Below, piece by piece: positions 137 to 19,233 of a stretch of 19,233 nt of DNA. Position 1 is the first letter of the stretch. Each line of letters starts with the position of its first letter. The stretch is from Thermoproteota archaeon (GTDB lineage Archaea > Thermoproteota > Thermoprotei_A > Sulfolobales > Ignisphaeraceae), in NCBI GenBank assembly GCA_030550585.1, contig JAUQPB010000001.1:771250-790482 (forward strand), written 5' to 3'. Below the pieces are notes generated by a model that searched no databases, had not been told where the DNA came from, and saw only the letters and a list, made by a program, of their open reading frames with translations. Position numbers and translations under genes: made by a program.

Positions 137-1753
137 TTAGCCGCCTTTCGCAATTATCTCGTTGATGAGTTCTAGACATGCTGGTATATAGCGTATGTAG
201 ATCTTCCCGTTCTGCTTCTTTACCTCTACAATATTTCTCTCCAATCCGGCGTGCGCATAGAAGTGTCTCTCGTTGGCTTGGCATCTCTGCTCGGGCCTGC
301 TTCTCGCTTTGTGCTCTGCTTCCATGAGTACTTCTCTCAGCTTCTCCCTCGCTATGGCATCTTCAAGGCTCATATTGAGGACTTGGATTATGGTGTTGTA
401 GACTAGCGGCTTGGACAGGTCTACTCCCAGCGTCTCGAGGGCATTCACATGCTTTTCAATGTCTTGCACTTCGTACATGAGGATCTTCGATGCTATTCTA
501 CTGAGCCCCAGCTCCCCACCCAGCTTCTCCAACAGCTCTAGCTCAACCCAGCCCTCCCAAGCTTTGAAGTCGAGCTTGATGGCTTCCCTCAGCCTCTTCA
601 GCAATCTCAGAGCTGAGAGCAGGTCCACGACCCCTGGGGTTACTGCATACTTGTGTTCAACTGTAACCGAGTCTCCCTCTAGCCTCACACTCCTAGAGTA
701 TAGAGCGTCCTTGACCTTGCCCTCGAGGCTGGATATATCCCTCTCGAGCTCTCCCAGGTCTAAGCCGGCCATCCTCGTTAGTATGTATAGAACGAGTCCA
801 TAGCTAGACGCCCTTGTAAGAGCGTTCATCAAGTCTGTGTAGCTTTTGGAGGTGTAGTCTATGACCCTGCTCAGCTCCTGAATTTCCTTCGGCGGCTCAA
901 CCCTCTCGAGCGCTCTCGGCTTTAACTCCTCCATGGAAAGGTCGCTGACTGTCGACTCGAAGAGCTCCAGCGGCTTCTCCTCATACGTTCTAAGCTCAAC
1001 TAGGTGAATGTGTGAGGACTGGCCTGGCTCCTGTACCGGATCGCTATTCACAACAGCTACCACCACTTTCTTCCCCCTCAGCGCACTGTAAAGCCTTATG
1101 GACTTGTGAACAGCCTCTCTGCCAAGCACCGGAAGGTAGTTTACGCCATGGCTTATGTCTAGCACCACCAGGTCTGGGTCTACACAATTGAGAGCATCTG
1201 CTAAATCGATCAACAATGCGGCATATGTGTTGAGCGGCGACCCCCTATAGACAAACCTCCTAAGGTTAGAACATGCCCTGTACACACCAATACCTGGAAG
1301 CACACTAACGCTTGCAGCAAGCTGCTCACCTACCTCCTTAGTGTACATGTCTGTGAATCTCTCTAGAACCCACCTAGCCACCTCCACAACATCATTGTAC
1401 TCGATGTGGTCACTACACAGAGATCCCTCGACACGCCTGCCCACCTCCTCAACGAGCTTAGCCCTTGGATCGCCCTCAACAGCCTTACCTGGTTGCTTAC
1501 CCGAGCTGGGCCTCGGCGGGGTTGCAAGCGTGTCCAAGCCATAGATCCTCAGATGGATCTCGAAGCCCAGCCTCTTCAAGGCAACCGCTTCAACAATAGT
1601 CGTTGAGTAGGAGTCTATACCCTCCCCCGGCACCCAACAACTAGGCTTACCCACACACCTCTTGTCATTGGGCACCACAGGGATGTATCTAGCTCTGTGC
1701 CACCCACCAGGGTAGCCCCACAAACCAATTACCAGTACATTGATATTCGTCAT
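137..1753 (-). CDS. csx1: Csx1-family cOA-activated ribonuclease (CARF + HEPN)
   Basis: CARF motif DISHGVNYLP (DxT/SHGxN) and C-terminal HEPN RxxxxH motif RHFYAHAG; last gene of the operon. ATG at 1753 preferred over the ORF-track start at 1795, which overlaps the upstream gene. Confidence 0.9.
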   Translation of the reverse strand: MTNINVLVIGLWGYPGGWHRARYIPVVPNDKRCVGKPSCWVPGEGIDSYSTTIVEAVALKRLGFEIHLRIYGLDTLATPPRPSSGKQPGKAVEGDPRAKLVEEVGRRVEGSLCSDHIEYNDVVEVARWVLERFTDMYTKEVGEQLAASVSVLPGIGVYRACSNLRRFVYRGSPLNTYAALLIDLADALNCVDPDLVVLDISHGVNYLPVLGREAVHKSIRLYSALRGKKVVVAVVNSDPVQEPGQSSHIHLVELRTYEEKPLELFESTVSDLSMEELKPRALERVEPPKEIQELSRVIDYTSKSYTDLMNALTRASSYGLVLYILTRMAGLDLGELERDISSLEGKVKDALYSRSVRLEGDSVTVEHKYAVTPGVVDLLSALRLLKRLREAIKLDFKAWEGWVELELLEKLGGELGLSRIASKILMYEVQDIEKHVNALETLGVDLSKPLVYNTIIQVLNMSLEDAIAREKLREVLMEAEHKARSRPEQRCQANERHFYAHAGLERNIVEVKKQNGKIYIRYIPACLELINEIIAKGG

Positions 1754-1766
1754 GGCGCTATCGCGA

Positions 1767-2729
1767 CTAGGCGAACTCTTTAAGCAGTTCGCCAAGAGGT
1801 TTCTGAGCTAGGTTCTCGATATTTATCAGCGCATCAAGTAGTTTTGTTTTGTCGTTAATGGTATTCAGATCTATGTATATCCCTCTACTGTTTTCAAGAT
1901 CTAGGAAAAGCTTGCCAACGCCTATAGACTTCGCACCTCCAATAGATATCCCCACCTTGTTTAGATATTCTAGCACAGCTCTAAGCATTCTAAGCTCTGG
2001 GCCACCTCTTACAACATTCTTTATGGTTATATCTATCGATAGAGAGTCTAATGCTGCGTACTCTCGTGTGTATAGCCGTTGGGGCATTGCTGTAGAGCTC
2101 TGGCGAGAGATAGATACATGGGTAACCATATGCGTAGAAACTATGTGTGGCTCTACCCTAAGCACAGATATCTTGGATCCCAGACCAGGGCCTCCGAAGA
2201 GCCTGCATATCGGGCACAGAGCTGAGAGCACCGGCTCTAGCTCTCTAGGTATTTTGTCGAGGCTATCAACACCCCCCATTATATTCGAAATCTCTGTAGC
2301 GGCATCATCGGTTAAGAAATGCCTGTAGAGATCTCTGTTACTGGTTAATACCTTGACTAAGTTCTTGACGAGGCTTAGGTACTCATCTCCGCGAGGAGAA
2401 CATATATGTCTGATTATATCTTCCTCAGGTTCGCAGTGTGCCTCAGCGAAGATTCTGTCGGCTGTGTCTCCAAACGCGTTGAGAGACGCCTTGGCAATGG
2501 ATTCTGCAGCTGATCTGAGAGCCCCTATGAAACTCGATGCAGGTATGTAGATCTCGTCACCAACTCTGAATACTGGGGTGTATGCCGCCCCCCTCTCCGA
2601 GGCTATATGCACTAGCCCAAGACTGTTAAGGGGCTTGAACACCAGCTTTAGGTAGAGCACAGTGTTCAGCTTTTTCTCTCGCTCAATAAACTCTCTCAGC
2701 CTATTGCCAACAATGTTGGCGTCCATCAC
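1767..2729 (-). CDS. cas7: Cas7-group RAMP subunit, probably non-catalytic
   Basis: YIPASSFIGALRS, CPICRLFG and G-rich loop IGGAKSIGVGK; no Asp at the usual Csm3 catalytic position. Confidence 0.85.
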   Translation of the reverse strand: MMDANIVGNRLREFIEREKKLNTVLYLKLVFKPLNSLGLVHIASERGAAYTPVFRVGDEIYIPASSFIGALRSAAESIAKASLNAFGDTADRIFAEAHCEPEEDIIRHICSPRGDEYLSLVKNLVKVLTSNRDLYRHFLTDDAATEISNIMGGVDSLDKIPRELEPVLSALCPICRLFGGPGLGSKISVLRVEPHIVSTHMVTHVSISRQSSTAMPQRLYTREYAALDSLSIDITIKNVVRGGPELRMLRAVLEYLNKVGISIGGAKSIGVGKLFLDLENSRGIYIDLNTINDKTKLLDALINIENLAQKPLGELLKEFA

Positions 2730-2730
2730 T

Positions 2731-3924
2731 TTACACCACCTCTACAAAATCTTGTCTAACGAACTTGACGAAGTTGAATCCCTGAGACGATAAGCTGTTG
2801 AATCCTGTCGCTACTGTATAGGCTAGAAGCTCATGGTTGTACACACGCAGTATCTCAGCCACAGCCAGGGTTCCAGGGCTGTTAACCTCCACAGGCAGCT
2901 TTGGTAGCCCAGTTCTATAAGACCACCCATAATACTTTGTTGTATGTCTGCCGATAACAGCGCGAATCTTTATCACAGCAGCTGTTGATCCAAAGACCTT
3001 CACAGTTATTTCATCACCTGTCATCACAGGTCCTGGCACACCATCTATGTTTAGCATTGGTGATGCAGCGTAGAGTACATATAGTTTGTTGCCTAGGTCA
3101 AATGGGTCAATGACTTTTGATTGGTCTATACTCTCTATGCATAGTCTCGATATCCCGAACCCCCGCCCAACACCTCTGCCAACTCTAACAACTAGGCAGC
3201 TCTTATCATAGGATTTGAGCGCGTCAGCTATAGGCGAACCACTTTGAGTCGCTATAAGCCCTACAAACGTGTTGCCAGGCTCTATGTACTCGTACGCATA
3301 GAGAGCCCCCGAAGCCGCGCTTCCGCGGGCTCTATCAACAGCTGTCTCTACGTAGATACTTGTGCTCGGCTCCGATACCACCCATCCACCAGCATCCCTA
3401 ACTATTGTGCTTCCACAGGCACTTTTCATCTCCGTAGAGGACTTTAGCACCTCAATTGGGTTGCTAACAGCGTTTTTGAATGCCTTTACATCTGTGTTGA
3501 GTGTGACATTAAATATCAGCTCCTTCAGAGCTTCTTCCACACCATATTTCCCTGTTTCAATGTATTGTAGGAGCCTGTCTATGCCGAAGCTCAGCACCCT
3601 GGGGGATCCAGTCGCGTGCTTGAACATAAATGTGAGTGCATGTGCAAATGCCACGTCTTTGATTGGTATAGCTGTATCGGCTTTTTCGCGGGGTACATGT
3701 AGAGCCGGAGTCACACTGTGGCTTGGATTTAGAGACTCGCGGTGAGCGTCTGCACTTGTTATAGCGTTTTCACTTAGAAGCTGTGAGAATAGAGCGCCTC
3801 TAACCACCGAGCCCAATATGTATTTGGATACGGTGGTGTAGCTCATGCCTCTGTAGCCCTGGGCGGAGGTCACGATGGCGGGCGTCAACAGCTCTAGTCT
3901 ATACCTATATAACCCTATCTCCAT
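2731..3924 (-). CDS. cas5: Cas5-group RAMP (Csx10/Csm4-like)
   Basis: YILGSVVRGAL, TAVDRARGSA..GALY, internal G-loop VGRGVGRGFG and second RRM ending SQGFN; RBS GGAGGTG before ATG 3924. Confidence 0.8.
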   Translation of the reverse strand: MEIGLYRYRLELLTPAIVTSAQGYRGMSYTTVSKYILGSVVRGALFSQLLSENAITSADAHRESLNPSHSVTPALHVPREKADTAIPIKDVAFAHALTFMFKHATGSPRVLSFGIDRLLQYIETGKYGVEEALKELIFNVTLNTDVKAFKNAVSNPIEVLKSSTEMKSACGSTIVRDAGGWVVSEPSTSIYVETAVDRARGSAASGALYAYEYIEPGNTFVGLIATQSGSPIADALKSYDKSCLVVRVGRGVGRGFGISRLCIESIDQSKVIDPFDLGNKLYVLYAASPMLNIDGVPGPVMTGDEITVKVFGSTAAVIKIRAVIGRHTTKYYGWSYRTGLPKLPVEVNSPGTLAVAEILRVYNHELLAYTVATGFNSLSSQGFNFVKFVRQDFVEVV

Positions 3925-3933
3925 ATCCACCTC

Positions 3934-4638
3934 CTAAGAAACCTGGGTAACGGAGAGCACGTATTTTACATTCTCATCTTCTGCAATGTCCGGAGGCTCA
4001 ATCTTTAAGATGTAGCTCTTTGCCGACGACCTTCTACCCACATACTTGTAGCGTAGCATAGCTATCGCTACGGTTAGTAGCCTAGCCACATCAGTAAGCT
4101 CGCTGAAATCGGCTGACTCGTACATTATCTCCCCATAGAACAGGGTTGCTGGGACAACCCTAAGCTCTTTGAACAAAGCTCCTTTGGCAGCTCTAGCACA
4201 TCTGTCGTCTAGCCTCACATGGGGCTCGATATAGGTACTTGGAGACAGTAGAGTGCTGTCCTTGAACAGATAGGCCATTGGCTCATCGTTTGCCAGTGAC
4301 TTAGCCGACTCCACATCTTTAACTGGGTAGAGAGGGCCGAACATGGTTGGCGACGGCACTACAGCAACTTTGTCGCTAAATGGTGTTAGGGGCCCAAATA
4401 CCTTCAATATGATGTCTCTGCTCTGCACAATGCCTACTCTAGTGAGGTGGTCAAAAACCTCCTCAGCTGCTCTCCTCAGAACCCCCTTGATGTAGGTGTG
4501 TGGTATACAGAGAACCTCGCCTACTCGTGCATGCCTACAGGTTGTTGTAACAACATTTGCTTCGAGAAGCCCTTTGCCACTGCCCCACAGCCCACCACCC
4601 TCAAGCTTGAGCAAATAACATATTCTGAGACGAGCCAT
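3934..4638 (-). CDS. cas7: Short Cas7-group RAMP subunit
   Basis: CIPHTYIKGVLRR, VFG, HVRLDDRCARAAKGALF, reduced G-loop (YVGRRS); ATG 4638 follows GGTGG at the cas10 stop. Confidence 0.8.
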   Translation of the reverse strand: MARLRICYLLKLEGGGLWGSGKGLLEANVVTTTCRHARVGEVLCIPHTYIKGVLRRAAEEVFDHLTRVGIVQSRDIILKVFGPLTPFSDKVAVVPSPTMFGPLYPVKDVESAKSLANDEPMAYLFKDSTLLSPSTYIEPHVRLDDRCARAAKGALFKELRVVPATLFYGEIMYESADFSELTDVARLLTVAIAMLRYKYVGRRSSAKSYILKIEPPDIAEDENVKYVLSVTQVS

Positions 4639-4642
4639 TGCA

Positions 4643-7468
4643 TCAACCACCAATGACTATTTCGACAAGGTTGTAGATGTCGAATAGAGGTGGCATATCT
4701 TTGCAGAGAAGCGATAGTCTTGCCATGCCCTGGTAAACACCTCTGCTCCTCTCCTCAACGCGGTTAGACTCTCTAGCTAGGTATAGACCTAGGATGAGGT
4801 TGTTAGCCCCGTGGTCATGGACGACGGTCATGGCCTCTTGTACCAATGACTCTATGTCCCGCAGAACATTCTTCAGACCCACTTTGCTGACTAGCTGTAT
4901 AAGGATCTCCGTAGCTGTGCCCAGGTCATCGACTCTCTTCCCAATTCCTTGGCTTAGAAGCGCATCGAGAACTGTTAGCATGTCGTCGCAGCCCACACCC
5001 ACACCCCTCTGAACAGTTGCTACGAAAGGTTGTTGACTCAGTCTATAGCCGGTAGCAGAGTACTTTTTGAAGAGCTGTGCAACCTCTGTCTCGAAGAGCT
5101 GCCACTCGCTTTTGATGAAAGATACGGTGGCAACGAGCTTCGGGCCCAGCTTAAACACCCTCTCTTCTCGGAATCTAGACTTGCACCTCTTGAGTAGGTA
5201 CTCAGCTGCGTCGAGGACATTCCATATGTTGTGTTTGGGCTTGGCAGCTGCTATAGCTATAGACAGGCTGAGCTCGCCGCCATTCAATCTCCAGAAGGTC
5301 TCGGCTATGGCTAGGGCCAGCGGCAGAGCTACGCTGGAGGGCCATATAGCAAGCATATCGTCTCCACCAGCATATAGAGTACCTGCGAAAACCCTGGTAG
5401 CAATCTTGTCGAACTCGTCGATATTGCCAATACCGTTCCTGAGCCTTTGAAGCGCTGCTAGGAACCCCAGCTTCAAACCCATATCTATTCTAATGCTTCT
5501 GCACATAGCCTCAGCAATGTTTAGTGCCGACGCCATGTACTGCCCAGCGGCATTTCCATCAACTTTAACTATAGCGATCTTGCGCTGCTCAACACCAAGC
5601 CTACCTAGCTCAACTCCTGAGAGCCAGGAGATGAGGTATTGATACACCTCCTTAACCCTGTTCTTCTCGATTATATCTCTAGCCTCTCTATAGCCTAGGG
5701 AGGCTAGGTACCCGAGCTTCGTTCTTATATACATGCCTGTGCCAAGGTCGTGCAGATCCCTGCACTCAGAACACACATACTCGCCGTTGAGATTCACTGT
5801 AGCCGGCCTCCGTCTACAGTACTCGCATAGCACCTCATACCCCGTCTCAGTCAATCTTCTCATTGTCCTGCGAAGCTCTTTCCTTGCTGCAAGTTCGGCA
5901 ACAGCTCTTCTAATGGACCAGCCCCAACTGGATTTAAGCTCCGATAAAGCGTAGGTCAAATCGATGTCGAAGCCAACTAGGCTCTTAACGTACTCAGCAA
6001 CCTTCTCAACATCTCTATCTGTGGTGCGCGACGGGGCAAAGGCTATTACAAAGCCCCCGCCTGCATAGACTATAGCGTCTAGCGAGAGACTGAGCTTCTC
6101 GATTATCGCTCTGGGGATGGCATATACCGTGCAGGCGTCTATCACAAAGCTTGCAGCTGTTAGTATTCTAAGCGACTCCCTCTTTATGAAGCTCTGAATC
6201 CCTGCCACATCAACTACCAGCAGCTTGACCTCCTCTATGCTTGACCCAGGATCCTCGAGGAGGTCAGAGGGTATCAGCCGGGCTTTGAGGCTCCCAGCTA
6301 TCTTCTCTACAACACTGCTGTACAAGTCGTTAGGCATAGAGAGCCAGGCATCCCATATCTTGGGCCCTGTCCCTGCAAAAAGATCCTCAACCTTTAGCCC
6401 ACGCCCTTCAGCATATTTGGCGAGGGTGTCATGTACAATAGATGCGAAGTACTTGCTAAGCCTATCGATATTCGAAGACCTCTGGTCAGCTTTGCTTAGA
6501 ATCTCTCCTAGCTCCTTTAGTTTCACCTCCAATCCCAAACCATCTAGCTTAAATGAGCTTGGCAACTTCTCTACATCGTGATGCTTCTCTATGAGTTCAC
6601 AAAGAGCTTTGTAGACCTCGCCCAAGCCCAGCCCAGACAAGAAGTCTTTGAGTCTGCTCTTCTCGATTAGCTCAACAGACTTCGCAGCATGGCTTACATA
6701 AACCCTATTTCTGTAGATCTCAACCCAGCTAGCGGGCTTGCCTATATCGTGTAGAAGCGCAGCTAGTCTAAGCAAAGCCAGCTCCAGTCTATGTTGCTTA
6801 TTCTTCTGGAGGGAATCCCAATATTTGTTGACATACATTGCTACAGCCAGTCCTGTTGTGGCAATGGTGTGCGGGATTAGCTTAGATATGCTACACCCAG
6901 GCCTAGTATCTGAAGGCAAATTCAATAAGAGGTCGAGCCTCTCGAGAGCCTCTTTCATGTCCTGCGGTGGAGCCACAATTTCTCCGAAGTGCTTCACAAA
7001 CTCGTTGATGGCCCCAGCAACCTTCTCGTAATCAAACTCTTTGGCTAACCCCCTCAAACTCCTGCCTTCACCCAGTATCTCCCGCATAACAGCTGTGTCT
7101 CTACCCATAATCCATGCGTAGAGCAGGTCTTGTGGAGACGGTGTCACAGCGCCGACCACTCCCTGAAGCTGTACCGGGGGTGTCAGCGGGGTTACGAAGT
7201 ATCTGCGAAAGGCTATCGATATAGCGTCGGCGAGCCTCTCAAGCAAGCATATCGCTAGGTCTACCCCCTGCAAGTCTCTGCAAATCCTAAACGCCTGTTC
7301 CACACCTTGGAAGAGCGTTGAGACAGCGTTGACAGCAGACTCAACTAATCCAAGCAGCTTTTTCCCATAGTTCGAGAGCTTCTCCAGACTCACACTAGTT
7401 ATATAGGTCTGTTGTCCAGTCTCATCGATGAGGGGGGACTGGTGTGTCACAACTATGTACTCGCTCAT
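4643..7468 (-). CDS. cas10: Cas10 large subunit with HD nuclease and cyclase palm domains
   Basis: PSDTRPG..LIPH, LLHDIGKP, SHA, KHHD, ADQRSS (HD); DVAGIQSFI and YAGGG (palm 1); CEYC..CSEC Zn finger; KVDGN and YAGGDD (palm 2); RBS AAGGTG. Confidence 0.95.
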   Translation of the reverse strand: MSEYIVVTHQSPLIDETGQQTYITSVSLEKLSNYGKKLLGLVESAVNAVSTLFQGVEQAFRICRDLQGVDLAICLLERLADAISIAFRRYFVTPLTPPVQLQGVVGAVTPSPQDLLYAWIMGRDTAVMREILGEGRSLRGLAKEFDYEKVAGAINEFVKHFGEIVAPPQDMKEALERLDLLLNLPSDTRPGCSISKLIPHTIATTGLAVAMYVNKYWDSLQKNKQHRLELALLRLAALLHDIGKPASWVEIYRNRVYVSHAAKSVELIEKSRLKDFLSGLGLGEVYKALCELIEKHHDVEKLPSSFKLDGLGLEVKLKELGEILSKADQRSSNIDRLSKYFASIVHDTLAKYAEGRGLKVEDLFAGTGPKIWDAWLSMPNDLYSSVVEKIAGSLKARLIPSDLLEDPGSSIEEVKLLVVDVAGIQSFIKRESLRILTAASFVIDACTVYAIPRAIIEKLSLSLDAIVYAGGGFVIAFAPSRTTDRDVEKVAEYVKSLVGFDIDLTYALSELKSSWGWSIRRAVAELAARKELRRTMRRLTETGYEVLCEYCRRRPATVNLNGEYVCSECRDLHDLGTGMYIRTKLGYLASLGYREARDIIEKNRVKEVYQYLISWLSGVELGRLGVEQRKIAIVKVDGNAAGQYMASALNIAEAMCRSIRIDMGLKLGFLAALQRLRNGIGNIDEFDKIATRVFAGTLYAGGDDMLAIWPSSVALPLALAIAETFWRLNGGELSLSIAIAAAKPKHNIWNVLDAAEYLLKRCKSRFREERVFKLGPKLVATVSFIKSEWQLFETEVAQLFKKYSATGYRLSQQPFVATVQRGVGVGCDDMLTVLDALLSQGIGKRVDDLGTATEILIQLVSKVGLKNVLRDIESLVQEAMTVVHDHGANNLILGLYLARESNRVEERSRGVYQGMARLSLLCKDMPPLFDIYNLVEIVIGG

Positions 7469-7480
7469 CTATTCACACCT

Positions 7481-7789
7481 TCACAGTTTGGTCGATAGAT
7501 TCTCTGCTGACCTATAGTCTCTCCTTAGAACAGATTGGCTGTCGAAGACATACGGGCATTCCACACTATATCTGCCAACTCGATCGCCTCCAGATATAAC
7601 GTGGTATATGCACACCTCTCTACCCTTGTCCGATCTCTCTTTCGTCACTACTATGGCTAGCTTACTCCTCTTCACATCGCTAATCACATTGTTGTCCACG
7701 GTGCAGACAACTTGGCCTCTAGACGATAGGTCGTCGTCGTAAAAGACTATGAAGGCCTTCTTACCTAGGAGCTCCCCCTCGAAACTCAC
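7481..7789 (-). CDS. Small beta-rich hypothetical protein inside the effector operon (possible Csx19-like subunit)
   Basis: 102 aa; GTG start overlaps the upstream TGA; ends 12 nt before the cas10 ATG; no motif recognised. Confidence 0.7.
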   Translation of the reverse strand: MSFEGELLGKKAFIVFYDDDLSSRGQVVCTVDNNVISDVKRSKLAIVVTKERSDKGREVCIYHVISGGDRVGRYSVECPYVFDSQSVLRRDYRSAENLSTKL

Positions 7790-8802
7790 TTCGCAACCAC
7801 CTTGTCTCTTACATCAGCTTCTGAAAATCCGTGTAGTTGCGATAGCTGGGGGTACCTGGTGAGGGCTGCATCAATGGCCATGTCAATGAGTTTCTGCAAC
7901 TCCTTTTCTCTGCAAACAATTTCGATGTGCTCGGCACTGCAGTTCAGTCCCCACTTGGCGAGGGTCTCGGCGAATCGAAGTGGAGCTCTGAGCACTGCAA
8001 CCATGAATCTCGCTTTGCCCATGTCGGGATACGCATATTTGTGTTTGCCGATGAGCACCGGTATGCCGATGGAGCTGCCCTTAGCTATGCCCATTGATAT
8101 GAGCAGCGCCCCTATCTCCTCAAGCTTGAGTGCAGAGAACATGATTGAGCCTTTGAGTCTAGTGCCCGGCTTTATTGCATAGACCTTTTCCCCGTATGGC
8201 AGATCCCTCTTCTCGTAAGCTTCTAGACCACAACAGAAGTTGCTTGGCATAACCCTTCCCACAACCCCTGGAGCACCAAAGATGTCGCAGACAACACATA
8301 TTGTATAGTCTTGCGTCTCTATAGGATTGCAATATGGGCCTCGATTCTCTGAAACTGCTTTCCAGATTCTTGCATGTCTCCAGCCGTGGGCGCCTGGTGG
8401 TGGAGGTGATGTAATTGGCTTGACATCGCTTCGCATACAAGATATAGCCGAGCCATCTTTGGCATGGCATAGCTCTAGCCTAGCCCTTAAGAGACCCTTT
8501 ATTGTGGAGCCCGGTATACACACACTATCTCCATAAACAACGTTGTCTATATAGTCGAGAGCAACATACGATGAAACCCTCTGCAACGCTTTTATATCAC
8601 CTTTAATGAGAGCTTCTTCAACAGTATTTAGCAGGCTAGCAGCTGTTTTAATGTCGATTAGACGCTCCAGCCTCTCCCTACCCATAGACACATGGATATA
8701 TGAAAGAGCCTCTATCTCAGCCTCGATAACGCCGCTGAGTGTCCCCTCCACCTCTATATCTCTTACAGTAAAAGCCTTTCTGGTCACAGCTATACTAGAC
8801 AT
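7786..8802 (-). CDS. cas7: Cas7-group RAMP subunit with helical insertion
   Basis: CIPGSTIKGLLRAR, CVVCDIFG, variant G-loop IGKHKYAYPDMGK; RBS GGAGGTG before ATG 8802. Confidence 0.85.
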   Translation of the reverse strand: MSSIAVTRKAFTVRDIEVEGTLSGVIEAEIEALSYIHVSMGRERLERLIDIKTAASLLNTVEEALIKGDIKALQRVSSYVALDYIDNVVYGDSVCIPGSTIKGLLRARLELCHAKDGSAISCMRSDVKPITSPPPPGAHGWRHARIWKAVSENRGPYCNPIETQDYTICVVCDIFGAPGVVGRVMPSNFCCGLEAYEKRDLPYGEKVYAIKPGTRLKGSIMFSALKLEEIGALLISMGIAKGSSIGIPVLIGKHKYAYPDMGKARFMVAVLRAPLRFAETLAKWGLNCSAEHIEIVCREKELQKLIDMAIDAALTRYPQLSQLHGFSEADVRDKVVAK

Positions 8803-9701
8803 GAGCTCCACCTCCAACCACTTTCAGACACCTTCCTAAGCTTCTGCAATGCACCTCTCCAAGCATTGGCAAAGTTCTTGAGCGTCTCCAGCCAGCTGCT
8901 CTCCACCACCTTTACATCCACGTCCAACGGATCGAGAGCCGGTATAGAGTCTTTAAGTTCCGCACCCCCTCTATAGTCATAGCCATAAACTTTCAGATTC
9001 TCGATTTTGACCCAGCCAAAGCCCCGTGTCTTGAGGCCTCCAATCTTCAGAAGACCCATGTGCATATCCAGTAGGGACTCTGCAACAACGCCAATTGCAT
9101 AGTTGGGTAGATTAACAAACTCTACTCTGAAGCTAAATTTGGCACCAGGCTCCACATACTCAACACTGAACAGAGCCCTGGGTTTTGCCGTACCAGTCCT
9201 CCTATCGATTGCAACCATAGTTCTATAGCCAAGTCTGTACCCATCAGTGGGGTAGCTGTCGTAGAACCTGATATGCGAGGCTAGGCCAGGGGAGCCAAAC
9301 ATTAGGCATGCCAAGCATATAGGCTTAGGTAACGCATTAGCTATGTTCTCCACAAGGCTCTCATAAGAAGCCCTATGCTTTTCAAGCTCCTCAAACTCAT
9401 CTCCTTTGAGACATGTATCCCCGGGCACACCACCACAAACAGCAAGCTCTGCACTCCTCATCAATTTAACGACATAGCTTCTGAAAACCCCTTTCAGTGA
9501 CGAGCCAGGGATATAGGGGATGCTTTTGCCGTCAGCCGTGGTTATCTTGACAACCACCAGGTCTACAGGCTCGAAAGTAGCTGCAGCACGACCAGCCCCG
9601 ACCCTGAGCGGCTCAATATTTGTTATAGTGCCCTCAAACACCACCCTTCTAACCAGCTTGTGAAGCCCAAACCATTCAAAAGCCTTGGCAGCTACACTCA
9701 C
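8790..9701 (-). CDS. csm3: Cas7 (Csm3) backbone subunit
   Basis: PLRVGAG, candidate catalytic Asp in EPVDLVV, PYIPGSSLKGVFRS, CLACLMFG, AIDRRTGTA, IGGLKTRGFG; RBS GAGGTG before GTG 9701. Confidence 0.92.
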   Translation of the reverse strand: MSVAAKAFEWFGLHKLVRRVVFEGTITNIEPLRVGAGRAAATFEPVDLVVVKITTADGKSIPYIPGSSLKGVFRSYVVKLMRSAELAVCGGVPGDTCLKGDEFEELEKHRASYESLVENIANALPKPICLACLMFGSPGLASHIRFYDSYPTDGYRLGYRTMVAIDRRTGTAKPRALFSVEYVEPGAKFSFRVEFVNLPNYAIGVVAESLLDMHMGLLKIGGLKTRGFGWVKIENLKVYGYDYRGGAELKDSIPALDPLDVDVKVVESSWLETLKNFANAWRGALQKLRKVSESGWRWSSCLV

Positions 9702-9703
9702 TT

Positions 9704-10660
9704 TCACCACCTCGAAATCAATTCTCTTAGTGTAATGTTCTTCTCCTCAACTAGGGAAAGGTCTTTCACAACATAGACTACAACACGGGTTTTCTCGGGA
9801 TCTAGCCTCAGAACCCCGTGTCCAACGCTCTTCATACCACCAAACATTATACCTTGAGATGCAAACATCTTTAGATATGTTCTCAGAAGTTTACAGACAT
9901 CGCTATCACATGCAGTGATGTCTATATTCTTTAGCTCTGCTCTGAAGCGCCACTTGTATCCAGGGGGTATGAATTCATATTCAAATAGCGCACCACTTCT
10001 AGCAGCCTCTCTAAACCGGTCTATTGCTACTCGTGCGCGTGTAGCTGGCTTAACCTCCTGATCTTTCACTGGATACACATCGAAGAATATGGCTTTAGAG
10101 GCGAGGGCTTGGTTGCCGAAGACCCTGCATATTATACATGGGCTATACTGCTTCAACACAGACAACAGCTTATCTACAGACGACACCTGCTCTATACTAG
10201 ACATAATGTTGCTGACCACAGCTTCCGCATCTCTTATGTGCCTACGGGAAGCTATTTCAGCAATAACCCCCTGGCTTTGTTTATCAAGAAGTGTCTTCTT
10301 CAATTCATCAAAGCTTCTAGATTTTTGTGCCACTTGATACACATAGTTAAGGAATTCAACTGCAAAAGAGCATGTTGCATCATTGAATAGTTCACACACC
10401 TTGTAGTTACCGGCTCTAGCCACAGCCTCTAACAGAGACCTAGTAGCACCTTTGATGGTAGATGCAGGAATGTATGGCACACCTCTAGGATCCCTCAGCA
10501 CAGGAAGGTCTACTTCGCCTAACCCACCACGGCCTTTACCAACGCGAAGCGGTGTTTCATTAACAGCTTCACCTTCTATAACAGTAATCGATTTCAGAAC
10601 ATCGTGATCGATGCCTAGTACACGAAGCTCTTCCACAACCTTCTGAATCTCGTCACTCAA
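9704..10660 (-). CDS. csm3: Cas7 (Csm3) backbone subunit
   Basis: TPLRVGKG, candidate catalytic Asp in GEVDLPV, PYIPASTIKGATRS, CIICRVFG, AIDRFREAA, FGGMKSVGHG; RBS GAGGT before TTG. Confidence 0.92.
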   Translation of the reverse strand: MSDEIQKVVEELRVLGIDHDVLKSITVIEGEAVNETPLRVGKGRGGLGEVDLPVLRDPRGVPYIPASTIKGATRSLLEAVARAGNYKVCELFNDATCSFAVEFLNYVYQVAQKSRSFDELKKTLLDKQSQGVIAEIASRRHIRDAEAVVSNIMSSIEQVSSVDKLLSVLKQYSPCIICRVFGNQALASKAIFFDVYPVKDQEVKPATRARVAIDRFREAARSGALFEYEFIPPGYKWRFRAELKNIDITACDSDVCKLLRTYLKMFASQGIMFGGMKSVGHGVLRLDPEKTRVVVYVVKDLSLVEEKNITLRELISRW

Positions 10661-13584: not shown

Positions 13585-13820
13585 CCAATAACTGATCTAC
13601 ATAAACCATAACACAATTTAGGATTTCGTTTTACAACAAAGCAATAGCTCACCACCTTCACCCCCAAACAGCTACTCAAAGAGAAAGCCAAGACTCGTTT
13701 ATATAGCTATCTCCCACCTTTCTACCCTGCTATGAGATCTCAACAAATTGCAGACAAGGTGTCCAAACACGGTCAGAGGCTAGAAGATCTTCACCCTCTC
13801 TTCATAGTCTCACAGCCGTG

Positions 13821-14128: not shown

Positions 14129-14443
14129 CCACACTACATCTTTTTCTAACCTACTTATAAACTGTATCATAGCATGGGTCAAATAGCCACAGCTTCTGCA
14201 TATCCCGTCTCTAGCAAAATTAAAGCTGCTAACCAACTTGCGTTAAAAATATTAGTCATTTGATTAAGGATTGTACAAACGAAACTGCAAGACGGTGATG
14301 AGGTTTCTGGTACCTGAAAACTGATGAAACCCTGCCTCACTGACCCCACCCACAAAACAGTTTGAAAAAGACTGTGCCACAGTCCAAACCATACCACACC
14401 CCACACTAATTTCTAGTATAACATGGTAAAAGTCTAATAGCAA

Positions 14444-14800
14444 CTTCCAACTCTATTTATCGGATTCAATCTCGGCTATCTCATCCTATCACCTTTTTCA
14501 ACGGCTTTTGCCTTTCAATTCCATTTATTGGATTCTTCAGCTGAAACAAGCAAAGAGAGTGAGGAGGTGGAGGAGGAGTGAACTTTCAATTCCATTTATT
14601 GGATTCTTTACGGCAAGCCATGTTTAAAAATCCGCTAAGCCCTTCTCTACTTTCAATTCCATTTATTGGATTCGCTACTGCCAAGCAGCCCAGTAGCGAC
14701 AAGTGTTAGACTTTCAATTCCATTTATTGGATTCCGCTATTGTTTTCCCGTCTTTTCCTTGAACCGCCACAGCTTTCTTTCAATTCCATTTATTGGATTC
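14444..14800 (-). CRISPR. CRISPR array A: 6 repeats of 24 nt, 5 spacers of 37-47 nt
   Basis: CTTTCAATTCCATTTATTGGATTC at 14512, 14583, 14650, 14711, 14777 and a 4-mismatch trailer copy at 14444; degenerate left end, ATTGAAAG tag and right-hand leader all indicate minus-strand transcription. Confidence 0.97.
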
Positions 14801-15125
14801 TGTGCTTGGTTCTCTTGGATGGGAGTCTCCATTTGCGGATTCGAAGCAGTTCAATATACTATGTGTTGAATCTGGTATAAAAGCTTTTAAGCAAATTAGC
14901 GTTAATCGCCATGCGATTGCCATAAAACATCAATGATCTGAAGAGATCATAGCAGCAATGCCGCTATTGCAATGTCTCCCATGGGAAAACTCTAGAAAGA
15001 GTTGACAAAATTGCATACACAGAGATTGTTCTCACGAAGTGATAAAAACTTTTAAAGGGCTTAAATATCTTTGCAAACCCCGCACTGTATGTAACGAATA
15101 TGGAAAGAGATGAAAAGCTTAAAAC
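14801..15125 (-). promoter_or_regulatory. Leader of array A with BRE/TATA
   Basis: Non-coding AT-rich stretch next to the last perfect repeat; minus-strand AAAAGC-TTTTATA at 14888-14876. Outer boundary is approximate. Confidence 0.7.
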
Positions 15126-15384
15126 TCTATTGTTTTGTGTGTTTTGTTTTTTGTTTTGATTTGGTTTAACGTTTATATTGCTTTTCGGTGTTTTGTGTGT
15201 TGGGGTGTGGGTCTACAGTGTCTCATGGGATGTATATTGTTTTTGTTGGGATTGCTGTTGTTTGGTGTGGCATTGTGATGCTATGCAATGTGTGTTGATG
15301 CAGTGAATTGTTTTGTAGATGGTGGATGGGATGCAATGGGTTTTGAGGTTGTTGGTGGGGTGGTTCCCTGGTTTTGGTAGGTGA

Positions 15385-15961
15385 TTGTGGGGTGCTGGGG
15401 CTGCACTACGTAACAGCAGATGTGCTTGGACTATCTTTGTTTATGCTCTGCCCACTGCTTTGTTGGTGATAGTTGGTCTCTTGCTTGGTTTGCTTAGCTT
15501 ATTGGGGTCGCCGGTCTTAGCACAGTTCTTTGCAACATTGTGTAGTGCGATGGTGGTGGCAGGTTTTAGCATTTCTTGTTTGTCTCGCTGGAGACTCTGG
15601 TCACAGCTCTAGCTAGTTGGAGCTGCCATCGCATCTACTAGACAGAGACGGAATCTGGGTTCCTTGCGGGGCTCGGTTGTTTCACTTCGTCGAGTTGCTT
15701 CATCAGACTCTATGAGCGAGTTCATGTGTAGAGTTTATGTGTGGTCTATGCGAACAAGATTTGTCAGCAGACTTTATAGACTGGACTAGCATAGTACTAT
15801 ATTCCGGGGCGGCGCCAGCGGTTCTGGTCTACATCACAGCTCAGCTGGTAGGGCAATCACCATCTGCCGCCCCCGCCTGCTCTGTTTGTCAGATGGCTTA
15901 TATACATGGCTTTTCATCGTTTGATGTGGGGTTTAAGAAGCGGGGTGGACCGGCTGATTAA
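15385..15961 (+). pseudogene. Probable decayed membrane-protein gene
   Basis: Hydrophobic segments in two short ORFs (TALLVIVGLLLGLLSLLG; SIVLYSGAAPAVLVYITAQL) separated by stops and frame changes. Confidence 0.3.
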
Positions 15962-16082: not shown

Positions 16083-17610
16083 CTTTCTACTCCCTTATGG
16101 GAGTTTCCAACTTATCCACTGTGCTTCGAGTGCAATAATCCGTTAAGGATAATCTTTCTACTCCCTTATGGGAGTTTCATAGGTACAAAACGTATCACAT
16201 AAGCAACGTATTTGTTCATAATATCACTTTCTACTCCCTTATGGGAGTTTCATGGCAGGGAGTACATCTATATTGTGCATGAGTGGTATGAGAGCTTTCT
16301 ACTCCCTTATGGGAGTTTCGTGGCAGTGGCAGGGTTGAAGAGGATAAGGGCTTGTTGCATCTGAACTTTCTACTCCCTTATGGGAGTTTCGTCTCTTTCA
16401 TGATCAAGGAGAGGGCTTTCGTGGACATGGCTATAGTCTTTCTACTCCCTTATGGGAGTTTTAACAATACTAGTGTTCTATGGTGTGAAGCCCAATGGAA
16501 AAGGATACACAATTCCACTTTCTACTCCCTTATGGGAGTTTCAAATGTCGCTCCCTGCAGTTGTCTCTGCAGTTACAGACATTGCAAAGGGGGCTTTCTA
16601 CTCCCTTATGGGAGTTTCCTTACCCTCTCTCCAAGCTTGCTTCAATTGCAGATACTGTTTGTCTTTCTACTCCCTTATGGGAGTTTCCTGAAATCACAAA
16701 CAATCGTTGCAAGGTTCGAGAAAAGCATCAGCCTTTCTACTCCCTTATGGGAGTTTCTGCGTTGGGGCCTATTCGACTACTGGTCTGTGCAGGTAGGACC
16801 ATTTACCTTTCTACTCCCTTATGGGAGTTTCAAAATGGGCGATGCAACTATCTGCAACACGAAAGACCCTTACATAGCTGCTTTCTACTCCCTTATGGGA
16901 GTTTCCGGCGTTGTTTGTTGTGTAGCATGCTGTAATTGCTTCTAGCAGCGACTTTCTACTCCCTTATGGGAGTTTCGGCTTTGGAACGGGCTTCAAACGG
17001 TTTGGAAGGGTATAGTAGACTTCTTCTTTCTACTCCCTTATGGGAGTTTCAGTGCTTCACCTATCGAGGCTTTAGAGCATGGCTGTTCAAACAGCCTATG
17101 CTTTCTACTCCCTTATGGGAGTTTCTCAGATACACCTACAGCTCTGGGGAACAGGAGCAGACAGACATCGAGATACTTTCTACTCCCTTATGGGAGTTTC
17201 ATAAGGAAGAGGGTGTTTAACAGGGAGACGAGGAGGTTCGAGTACCTTTCTACTCCCTTATGGGAGTTTCTAGATGATGATAATCATAGGCGGTATCTAG
17301 CCGTCTGCTATGACTTTCTACTCCCTTATGGGAGTTTCGATCATATGCCTTGCCACGCACCTTGAGGCATCTGTAGCACCTTTCTACTCCCTTATGGGAG
17401 TTTCGAGCCAGTACAACATACCTCCTGGGCTCTGGGGCGTATACATCTTTCTACTCCCTTATGGGAGTTTCCATTTCTCAACAATTTTTGCAAGAAAGTT
17501 TGATATCTTTCTATCTTTCTACTCCCTTATGGGAGTTTCAATGGGGGTGTGTGGTGTCAGGGAGCCAAGCAAGTATTGGTACTAGCTTTCTACTCCCTTA
17601 TGGGAGTTTC
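16083..17610 (-). CRISPR. CRISPR array B: 22 repeats of 25 nt, 21 spacers of 41-55 nt
   Basis: CTTTCTACTCCCTTATGGGAGTTTC x22 (copy at 16438 ends in T); 6-bp stem ACTCCC/GGGAGT with 4-nt loop. Minus orientation is inferred only from the GAAAG 3' end. Confidence 0.97.
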
Positions 17611-18167
17611 CTAGTTGTTTCAAGGATAGGGGTGTGGTATGGATTCATGGACTGGATACATATATAACTACATATGTTAAGAATTTGAAGATGTGGAACA
17701 TATTCATGGGTATAGGTTTTATAGCTGATCCTTTGGATCCTGATCTCTCTGTTGAGAAGATGTTGTATGATCGCCTTAGTTTCGATTTTGATGATGAGGC
17801 TAATCCACGTGAAGCGGTGGAGTGGGGACTGGGGTTCGCTAAGATTATTGAGGATAGATATGGTGCTACTCCACTAGTTTTCGAGTCCGGTTTCAAGGGT
17901 GCTCATGTGGTTATACCATTGTCTAGGCCTGTGGAGTGGGGGGTGTACCAGCTACTGTGGAGACATCTCTATGTAGAGATTCCTCCTGAAGCTAGAAGGC
18001 TCATAGATTTAAACATGTTGCAATGGAATAGAGTGAATAGAGTGCCTCTAACCTATAACGTTAAAGAGAGCGGTGCCAGGTTCTGTAGGATTATATATCC
18101 AAGGAAGTTTACATGGGATAACTTCAGCTGGAGGGAGCTTATGCCTCTAGAAATGGTTTGCTGTTAG
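17611..18167 (+). pseudogene. Archaeo-eukaryotic primase (AEP/Prim-Pol) catalytic domain, plasmid/virus-like, apparently truncated
   Basis: Motif I LSFDFD, motif II FESGFKGAHV, motif III LIDLNM followed by RVPLTYN; frame open back into the last repeat; ends at MVCC* soon after the core. Confidence 0.75.
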
Positions 18168-18337
18168 CTCTGTGAGAGAATCGTGATAGTAGTTAATATT
18201 TTTGCTTTAATAGCTTGTCAGAATCTTCTATCTATAAGAATTGTTAGAGATTTGCAACATTCTTTACTCATTCAATGATTCTCATTGTTAGAGATGGACA
18301 TCTTTCTGCTCTATCATATGTTTAGAGTATGTAACAT

Positions 18338-18766
18338 TTATTTCCAGTATTTTGGTGGCTCACTTTTTCTAAGTTTGGTGGTAGGTTCCCACCTAAATCT
18401 CCATAAACCTTTGCCAACATCTTCTAACACAAGTTGGAATTCACTAATAGTTTTATCGCTTAAAAGAACCTCATCAGCTAGAGGCGATATAACTATATCG
18501 ATATCTACTTCAGATGATATAGTGTCTTCTGCAACTACTACAGATTTACAGATCCTAGGCGCAATCCAGACTCTTAAGGGTCCTCCAGCAGTTTCAAAAA
18601 CTGTTTCTTCAAAGCTTTGTGTAGGAGGCCAAAGCCCTAGAGTCTGGGCAACAGGTATAGGAATTAAAATTTGTGGTGTTTCTGATTCGTAACCACTATT
18701 AGCTAAAGCACTTACATCAATACTTTTACTACCACAGAGAATCCTAACCTTAACCCTTACAACCAA
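18338..18766 (-). CDS. Retropepsin-like (clan AA) fold protein with NSG in place of DTG
   Basis: ALANSGY, LIPIPVAQTLGL, flap-like FETAGG and EVLLSD match the archaeal single-domain aspartyl-protease layout; RBS AAGGTG before TTG. Confidence 0.7.
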   Translation of the reverse strand: MVVRVKVRILCGSKSIDVSALANSGYESETPQILIPIPVAQTLGLWPPTQSFEETVFETAGGPLRVWIAPRICKSVVVAEDTISSEVDIDIVISPLADEVLLSDKTISEFQLVLEDVGKGLWRFRWEPTTKLRKSEPPKYWK

Positions 18767-19050
18767 AACTATGCACCTTTACAAGCCTTAATTCTCCCAA
18801 CTCTAGTCTTATGATCTCTAATAAGACCAACGAAAATCTTCTTCATAGAGTAAGCACCTCAAGCTACTTCTTAACTCAAAAAGATTATCTATTTATCTAC
18901 TGAAGCAACCTATATCTACCGATTTTCTTGACAATATTGATTAGATTATAGTTAACTACAGTAGATGGATTATGTGTCCAACTTAATGAATGATATCATC
19001 TTTCAGCAATCTCTGTATCGTTACATAGCTAAACCCAACTTATTATATAG

Positions 19051-19233
19051 ACTTTCTTTTCAGTATTCATCAACAAGGTAAGAGAATATTGTGACAAGAA
19101 TCTTTATCTAGATGAAGATCTAAACAGAGAGCACACTTTCGAAAGAGATATACCAGGATATGGTTTACCTAACGCCATCACCTTTGACGAAAATGGCTCT
19201 GCCTATATAGCTGGAGCAGGTATAGCTATGTTT
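19051..19233 (+). pseudogene. Beta-propeller-repeat protein fragment running off the window
   Basis: Frame reads ...DIPGYGLPNAITFDENGSAYIAGAGIAMF (SBBP/NHL-like blade); in-frame stops at 19030 and 19048 and no start codon before the motif. Confidence 0.4.

Follow-up and report, generated by a model that had tools for sequence, protein, structure and literature searches.

A CRISPR array apparently joined to imported DNA in place of its leader in an archaeon of the Ignisphaeraceae

Why should a CRISPR array give way to a piece of a replication gene at the very base where its leader should begin? The question is raised by array B, which consists of 22 repeats of 25 nt and 21 spacers (16083..17610) and lies in a 19,233-nucleotide stretch of DNA (the window) from an archaeon of the Ignisphaeraceae. 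The window is the terminal 19.2 kb of contig C4 of genome G000 (1.76 Mb in 7 contigs, completeness 99.92%), the contig ends at base 19233, and the joint in question, at 17610/17611, is 1.6 kb from that end. To the right of it stands a fragment of a gene of the archaeo-eukaryotic primase (AEP) superfamily, which a second joint at 18146 connects to DNA shared with a sister species. It is very probable that the joint is real and that the locus, with no leader, a gene fragment and imported DNA, is the scar of a recent rearrangement.

Array B and its missing leader

The repeat of array B, CTTTCTACTCCCTTATGGGAGTTTC, occurs in 22 copies in 16083-17610, where none is expected by chance; 21 copies are perfect and one has a single mismatch. 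The spacers of array B are ~41-55 nt long and those of its repeat family across the genome 38-57 nt (mode 46), plus one of 100 nt, and in its regular direct repeats and unique spacers, array B is a canonical array. The terminal repeat (17586..17610, minus strand) is perfect, as the original prediction had said, and forms the left side of the joint with foreign DNA. The Rfam model CRISPR-DR17 aligns to bases 17586-17610 with a score under the gathering threshold; Rfam repeat models are arbitrary in orientation, and the strand of this match (+) was not used for polarity. On the minus strand, from which array B is presumably transcribed, the repeat ends in GTAGAAAG, which we take to resemble the 5′ tag of Sulfolobales CRISPR RNAs (crRNAs).

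Four further arrays in G000 are built of the array B repeat. In two of them, the flank that directly follows ...GTTTC is a conserved leader (91% over 228 bp), and a homologous flank is present in 17 of the 17 arrays of eight sister genomes in which that side is assembled; five further sister-genome arrays run off their contigs and are uninformative on the leader. As the conserved flanks of the other arrays are all found on that side, the leader of array B belongs at its right-hand end, in agreement with the original prediction. By sequence comparison, the 228-bp leader is found nowhere in the window, and the motifs that are present in 19 of 19 control leaders do not occur in 17611-17870. The prediction had spoken of the lack of an AT-rich leader; the leader is indeed absent, but the flank is not poor in A+T, since 17611-17870 has 65% compared to 61-62% in real leaders, and so the leader is missing by sequence and not by composition.

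The leader motifs form a pattern of their own. A motif pair (GTTCYDRTD, then ARRRRTTGA ~12 nt on) recurs in 19 array leaders in 3-4 copies ~33-36 nt apart, starting ~100 nt off repeat 1, and in the sister-genome flanks the pairs are periodic, at ~102/135/171 and 114/154/183/206 nt. Such a series may be an array of protein-binding sites.

Leaderless arrays account for two of the four in G000 and none of the 17 in the sister genomes. Moreover, no match to Cas1 (PF01867) or Cas2 (PF09827) was found in G000 at its stated completeness, an assembly gap being possible, despite ~137 repeats of the array B family over five arrays; Cas1 was found in 9 of the 16 sister genomes, yet not in the closest one, G010. 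Of the features of a canonical, adaptation-competent array, array B therefore lacks a leader by the first repeat as well as cas1 and cas2 in the genome. Array B is a leaderless orphan in which no spacer uptake is possible, and its transcription may occur by read-through from the right. The syntenic array in G010 has no spacer in common with the window and runs off its contig, so that the ancestral leader end is not visible there. As to the other arrays, one at G000:C3:33419-36431 has identical spacers 1 and 3 and a “spacer” of 100 nt, suggesting a lost repeat, one at C1:29-194 of G000 runs off the contig start, and the array at G010:C1:1-1600 ends its contig with one spacer present twice, possibly an assembly loop.

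The joints and the DNA that they connect

Independent assemblies of sequencing runs carry the same arrangement. Two runs (X1 and X2) hold 93-94% of the words of a 1.2-kb query, and 17510-18383 is spanned by a Logan contig of X2 (874 nt, depth 27) that runs through both joints without a branch and extends beyond them by more than 31 letters on either side. The contig of X1 (1581 nt, depth 12) covers 17582-19162, which leaves 29 letters to the left of the joint, and both contigs differ from the window by one base, 18036 A>G. The bridging of both joints and the one-base allele make a chimera unlikely. The depth over 17620-17727 in X1 and X2 is that of the single junction contigs, which implies that those runs contain no assembled copy of an intact primase gene, nor one of the putative spacer next to the joint within a normal array. 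In addition, the 177-residue open reading frame (ORF) whose C-terminus is made by the right-hand junction is found as two alleles on at least six other contigs. The older spacers of array B are deeper (36-103 in X1 and 159-179 in X2), suggesting that the joint is carried by a minority lineage within a population that shares the trailer end. Against the joint it must be said that this read evidence consists of Logan contigs, which are themselves assembled, and that X1 and X2 come from one study.

The DNA to the right of the array (17611..18152, plus strand) is an internal fragment of an AEP gene of the PrimPol-PriX type, corresponding to ~residues 36-215 of relatives of ~345 amino acids and cut at both ends. 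The gene had been described as truncated, and this holds on both sides: homology begins at ..SCFKDRGVVW, the first codons past the repeat, and ends at ..PLE (18152), while the relatives extend ~35-90 amino acids in front, including a conserved block of ~35 residues, and at least 130 amino acids behind, into PriX. The left joint was placed against these relatives by protein homology. Full-length relatives have ~280-480 amino acids, with the PrimPol core at ~85-190 and the PriX domain at ~240-340, and the fragment has neither the N-terminal block nor the C-terminal PriX domain of this architecture. The listed ORF (17634..18167, plus strand, GTG start, 177 amino acids) takes its last codons (MVCC and the stop) from neighbouring DNA in a foreign frame. 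The original prediction had also stressed that the frame is open through the repeat, and the translation of 17586-18167, LSTPLWEFPSCFKDRGVVWIHGLD...MVCC and stop, agrees with this. However, the repeat contributes only eight codons to the open frame and a TAG stands just before it (17583-17585), so the “in-frame fusion” carries no weight.

The membership of the fragment in the AEP superfamily rests on several comparisons. The Pfam family LigD_Prim-Pol matches with an E-value of 1.2e-4 and 22.2 bits, under the cut-off of 27.4, and among 1.84 billion representatives, 75 relatives were found at E<=1e-3 for the 185-residue translation of 17610-18164; a word-indexed search gave 12 relatives of the fragment. 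Motif I (DxD, here FDFDD) and motif II (SGxxGxH, here SGFKGAH) are present and align to LigD PolDom structures. The prediction that all three catalytic motifs are kept is thus borne out for these two, whereas the assignment of motif III, the third acidic motif, is ambiguous between two conserved Asp candidates: that in LID is kept, and that in NRV-D-RVP, an Asp in nine of the ten relatives that cover this position, is replaced by Asn in the window but retained in runs X1 and X2. The family is sporadic: none of 16 genomes of the same genus has it, and it is found in 4 of the 26 genomes of the taxonomic family and in 24 of the 325 of the order (the latter two counts including G000). When DNA was fetched around related AEP loci, none of 25 had CRISPR-like repeats nearby. 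In summary, the piece is probably a dead internal fragment, a pseudogene relic, of a PrimPol-PriX replication gene of the kind found in small archaeal plasmids, viruses or integrated elements.

The closest relative (81%) consists of two partial proteins (P0003 and P0013) on contigs that both have 9069 bases, with 42 identical residues overlapping, which suggests that its gene is split across the ends of a small circular element. Searches for close relatives at the DNA level gave only relatives of 48-50% in JGI and none in IMG/VR, and the genome_contigs collection held no relative with the window protein as query and one of 68% with P0003. There was no PHROGs match for the fragment, for the 142-residue ORF to its right or for a full-length relative, and at the DNA level, phage records matched neither 17611-19233 nor two whole arrays.

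Beyond what the original prediction contained, the fragment lacks its 3′ part as well and passes there into a segment of 968 bp (18146..19113) that is 99% identical to G013:C2. The ordinary orthologous DNA of G000 and G013 is 65-73% identical, and hence this segment represents recently exchanged DNA. Its counterpart in G013:C2 is flanked on one side by a tRNA-Arg gene and on the other by a small ORF that runs across the breakpoint with its last codons intact; there is no CRISPR nearby, and two runs from other studies (X3 and X7) hold the 968-bp piece in the G013 arrangement. The six bases TCTAGA at 18146-18151 can be assigned to either parent, indicating a microhomology joint. A further sequence, 98% identical to G012:C29 and 89% to G013:C9, starts at 19114 and reaches the contig end (19114..19233, plus strand), and the array is thus followed on the right by 1.6 kb patched together from at least three pieces. 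No other copy of 17611-19233 and no further copy of the leader was found in G000. In 17611-19233 there is no full or degenerate second repeat, the best site having 11/25 mismatches, which is the chance level; a giant spacer with a second flanking repeat is ruled out by the same comparison.

The 968-bp segment holds an ORF of 142 amino acids (18338-18766, minus strand) that points toward array B and has no Pfam match. It is conserved at 60-76% identity and at constant length across Thermoprotei, Bathyarchaeota, Methanomethylicia and Nezhaarchaeota; among G003, G010, G012 and G013, it is intact, as in G000, only in G013 and is broken in G003.

A second array of the same genome ends in a similar manner. 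The array at G000:C7:57815-61036 has 46 repeats (a variant of the array B repeat that differs by one base) and no leader, and its leader-side repeat edge, as in array B, adjoins a foreign gene, here a pyrE that lacks ~60 codons at its N-terminus. The pyrE DNA is 100% identical to G012 over 1053 bp and 99.5% over 8.8 kb, and pyrE is whole in G012; with both parents known, the joint is exact to the base and without microhomology, and it is present in X2 as well. The trailer flank of this array is likewise G012-like (99.6%). G000 keeps its own pyr operon, 67-68% identical, 19 kb upstream. Both examples in G000 thus carry DNA that is at least 99% identical to that of co-occurring species, and the second base-exact joint points to a joining mechanism that is specific to the leader-repeat site. 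The array and the second pyrE-pyrB operon belong to a block of ~20 kb (G000:C7:56117-76330) between a tRNA-Thr gene and an archaeal integrase gene (PF16795).

Possible origins of the joint

Tentatively, and at somewhat less than an even chance, we favour an origin of the left joint by homologous recombination between what was then the newest spacer (~17611-17652) and its protospacer on an invading element. In this sequence of events, the newest spacer of array B would recombine with the matching protospacer, and a deletion or a second illegitimate joint would then remove the rest of the array end together with the leader. A joint at the boundary of repeat and spacer is what is found, as homology to the AEP family sets in with the codon next to the repeat and the pyrE breakpoint can be placed to the very base. 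In addition, an NGG (CCN on the crRNA-sense strand) is located at a distance of 42 nt in the AEP case and of 46 nt in the pyrE case, both within the range of spacer lengths in this genome (38-57 nt, mode 46), with a chance of 0.52 per site and with the protospacer-adjacent motif (PAM) known from one or two protospacers. According to passages of a review of Sulfolobales (PMC4390879), the PAM end of the spacer is the one nearest the leader, and CCN is among the usual PAMs.

Matches of two other spacers also speak for the crossover. Spacer 19 of the G000 array at C7:275275-276886 (L053) matches the PrimPol-PriX gene of a relative in genome G162 (L025:1661-1706) in 38 of 40 aligned bases of the 46-nt spacer, and GGG stands on the leader side; to the fragment in the window itself, this spacer has no match. 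Spacer 22 of the array in G013:C2 (L073) matches the chromosome of G012 (G012:C13, L067:6255-6304) in 49 of 50 aligned bases of the 52-nt spacer, without an adjacent CCN; this match suggests that chromosomal DNA of sister species is sampled, and hints that CRISPR takes up DNA exchanged between species.

Several results weigh against the crossover. A random site has an NGG at 38-57 nt with p=0.52, or ~0.27 for both sites, and the PAM is tentative, since of two clean protospacers one fits CCN and the other does not. The putative spacer was absent from 611 unique spacers of the genus; this search was scripted, since whole-array searches of the genus were flooded by array-to-array matches. Likewise, an exact 30-mer of the putative spacer had no match in JGI metagenomes and IMG/VR, and the depth over 17620-17727 shows no normal-array form of it in the contigs of X1 and X2. 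Finally, a break at which fragments were captured would account no less well for the patchwork of short pieces (540 bp, 968 bp and the further sequence). As for self-targeting, none of the 131 spacers of G000 matches the fragment or its flank.

Such a capture is the core of a second explanation, which, like the crossover, had been among the four options of the original prediction and is possible, if doubtful: a break at the adaptation site, or half-site integration by Cas1-Cas2 at the leader-repeat boundary, would have joined a long foreign 3′ end or captured loose fragments, and in the same process the leader and neighbouring DNA, possibly including cas1 and cas2, would have been lost. Both joints in G000 are at the exact site of Cas1-Cas2 chemistry and the pyrE joint shows no microhomology; three pieces are patched within 1.6 kb, with the TCTAGA microhomology at the right-hand joint, and the lack of a Cas1 or Cas2 match in G000, compared to the presence of Cas1 in 9/16 sister genomes, would agree with a loss of these genes. 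However, we know of no case in which Cas1-Cas2 joined kilobase DNA in vivo, and literature searches listed none; this route gives no reason to expect an NGG at spacer-length offsets, and, as Cas1-Cas2 is now absent, the integration would have to predate its loss. A breakpoint at the same position has a precedent in a deletion in E. coli that, in a passage of the report, ends at the last base of a repeat (PMC5359238).

It is rather improbable that ordinary illegitimate recombination or deletion, with no CRISPR-specific step, placed an endpoint at the repeat edge by chance. The mosaic of mobile-DNA fragments and the microhomology at 18146 would fit such an origin, and leaderless arrays are known elsewhere, such as locus F of S. 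solfataricus in passages of PMC4390879. On the other hand, two independent joints within ~1 nt of the repeat edge, given a unit of ~71 bp, have a rough chance of (3/71)^2, or ~0.002, and none of the 17 sister arrays is affected.

Site-specific integration of a mobile element into a CRISPR repeat, followed by decay, is less probable still and can be given little credence. There is a precedent in a phage of S. pyogenes whose attachment site (attP) shares 8 bp with the repeat, as described in passages of bioRxiv 10.1101/2020.10.09.333658, and the pyrE-linked array belongs to an island with tRNA-Thr at one boundary and an archaeal integrase gene at the other. At array B, however, the terminal repeat is whole and has no second copy in 17611-19233, there is no integrase in the 1.6 kb up to the contig end, and the adjoining gene is a truncated primase and not an attachment (att) site.

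An assembly chimera running from a spacer into its target, one of the options of the original prediction, is very unlikely, even though the joint lies near a contig end, the support comes entirely from assemblies and the sampled hot-spring communities are mixed and include sister species. The X2 contig passes through either end of the putative spacer without a branch, the depth over the fragment corresponds to one contig, with neither an intact primase nor a normal array in the runs, and the joint is seen with two alleles, A or G at 18036; besides, the primase gene has lost its 3′ end as well, a loss that running on into a target would leave unexplained.

The least credible option, that a functional minimal CRISPR-linked primase starts at GTG 17634, can point to a frame of 177 codons with intact motifs I and II that recurs in several assemblies, but both ends of the gene are missing, including the conserved N-terminal block and the PriX domain, the last codons are the DNA of another gene out of frame, a conserved Asp is Asn in this genome, other short matches outside its own cluster carry a partial annotation or lie on short contigs, none of 16 genomes of the same genus has the gene, and the 0/25 relatives' loci near an array, together with the lack of cas1 and cas2 in G000, leave a link to CRISPR unsupported.

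Surroundings and known systems

The rest of the window contains further CRISPR components. A type III interference module (Csx1, RAMP proteins and Cas10; 137..10660, minus strand) is the likely user of the array crRNAs. Array A (14443..15141, minus strand) has six repeats of a separate family at 14443-14808 and its own leader on the right, at 14809-15141, which is copied at G000:C4:814-1146 and 769666-769998 and also occurs in G010 and G004; with this right-hand leader, array A serves as an internal control for array polarity. A lone stretch resembling the array B repeat (13715-13737, 74-78% to several copies) lies between the type III genes and array A, 2.3 kb upstream of array B, and a strongly G+T-rich tract of low complexity (15100-15400) separates the array A leader from array B.

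Orphan and leaderless arrays are common and their origin is rarely traceable; here, the first repeat is joined to imported DNA with base-exact precision, twice in one genome. In the primase piece we see no new enzyme but an ordinary dead fragment, and the interest of the locus lies in the exact, repeated joining of imported DNA. This raises the possibility, on which we are cautious, that the leader-repeat junction is an in vivo entry point for kilobase foreign DNA, by a crossover of the newest spacer or by Cas1-Cas2 joining a long end, through which genes of sister species are imported while the array is decapitated. If this were true, CRISPR adaptation sites would be hotspots at which horizontal transfer and the loss of CRISPR recur, and an enrichment of such joints at the leader-repeat boundary would link rearrangement, gene import between species and the loss of immunity to CRISPR adaptation, through its chemistry or its memory.

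Several known systems share features with the end of array B. In staphylococci, recombination between spacers and protospacers reportedly occurs between phages and CRISPR loci, as shown for phage transduction; the identity of spacer and target serves there as the crossover and gives joints of repeat and target, whereas the spacer status of 17611-1765x is putative. CRISPR-associated primase-polymerases (CAPP) are intact genes of the AEP superfamily that are conserved beside cas1 and cas2. Array B resembles CAPP loci in having an AEP gene next to CRISPR components and differs from them in that the piece is a two-sided fragment, in a genome with no cas1 or cas2 match, whose relatives have no link to CRISPR. 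As in the S. pyogenes prophage case, mobile DNA separates the array from its control region, but that case, in the passages concerned, is integrase-mediated, with an att core in the repeat and a repeat copy at both ends, neither of which is seen at array B (bioRxiv 10.1101/2020.10.09.333658).

In S. solfataricus, the passages concerned describe leaders that are conserved over ~230 bp from repeat 1, compared to 228 bp here, and a large leaderless array, locus F, which is inactive in spacer uptake and invariant between strains (PMC4390879). Those passages mention no foreign gene fragment at the repeat edge of locus F, unlike array B, where the DNA in place of the leader can be identified and is joined with single-base precision. 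The E. coli case is similar in outcome, as a passage of its report shows the leader and cas genes lost, a breakpoint at the repeat boundary and an orphan array left behind (Geue et al. 2017, PMC5359238). In E. coli, however, the change is a simple deletion with its other end in cas3 of the same locus, whereas at array B the host is an archaeon and the partner of the repeat is imported DNA.

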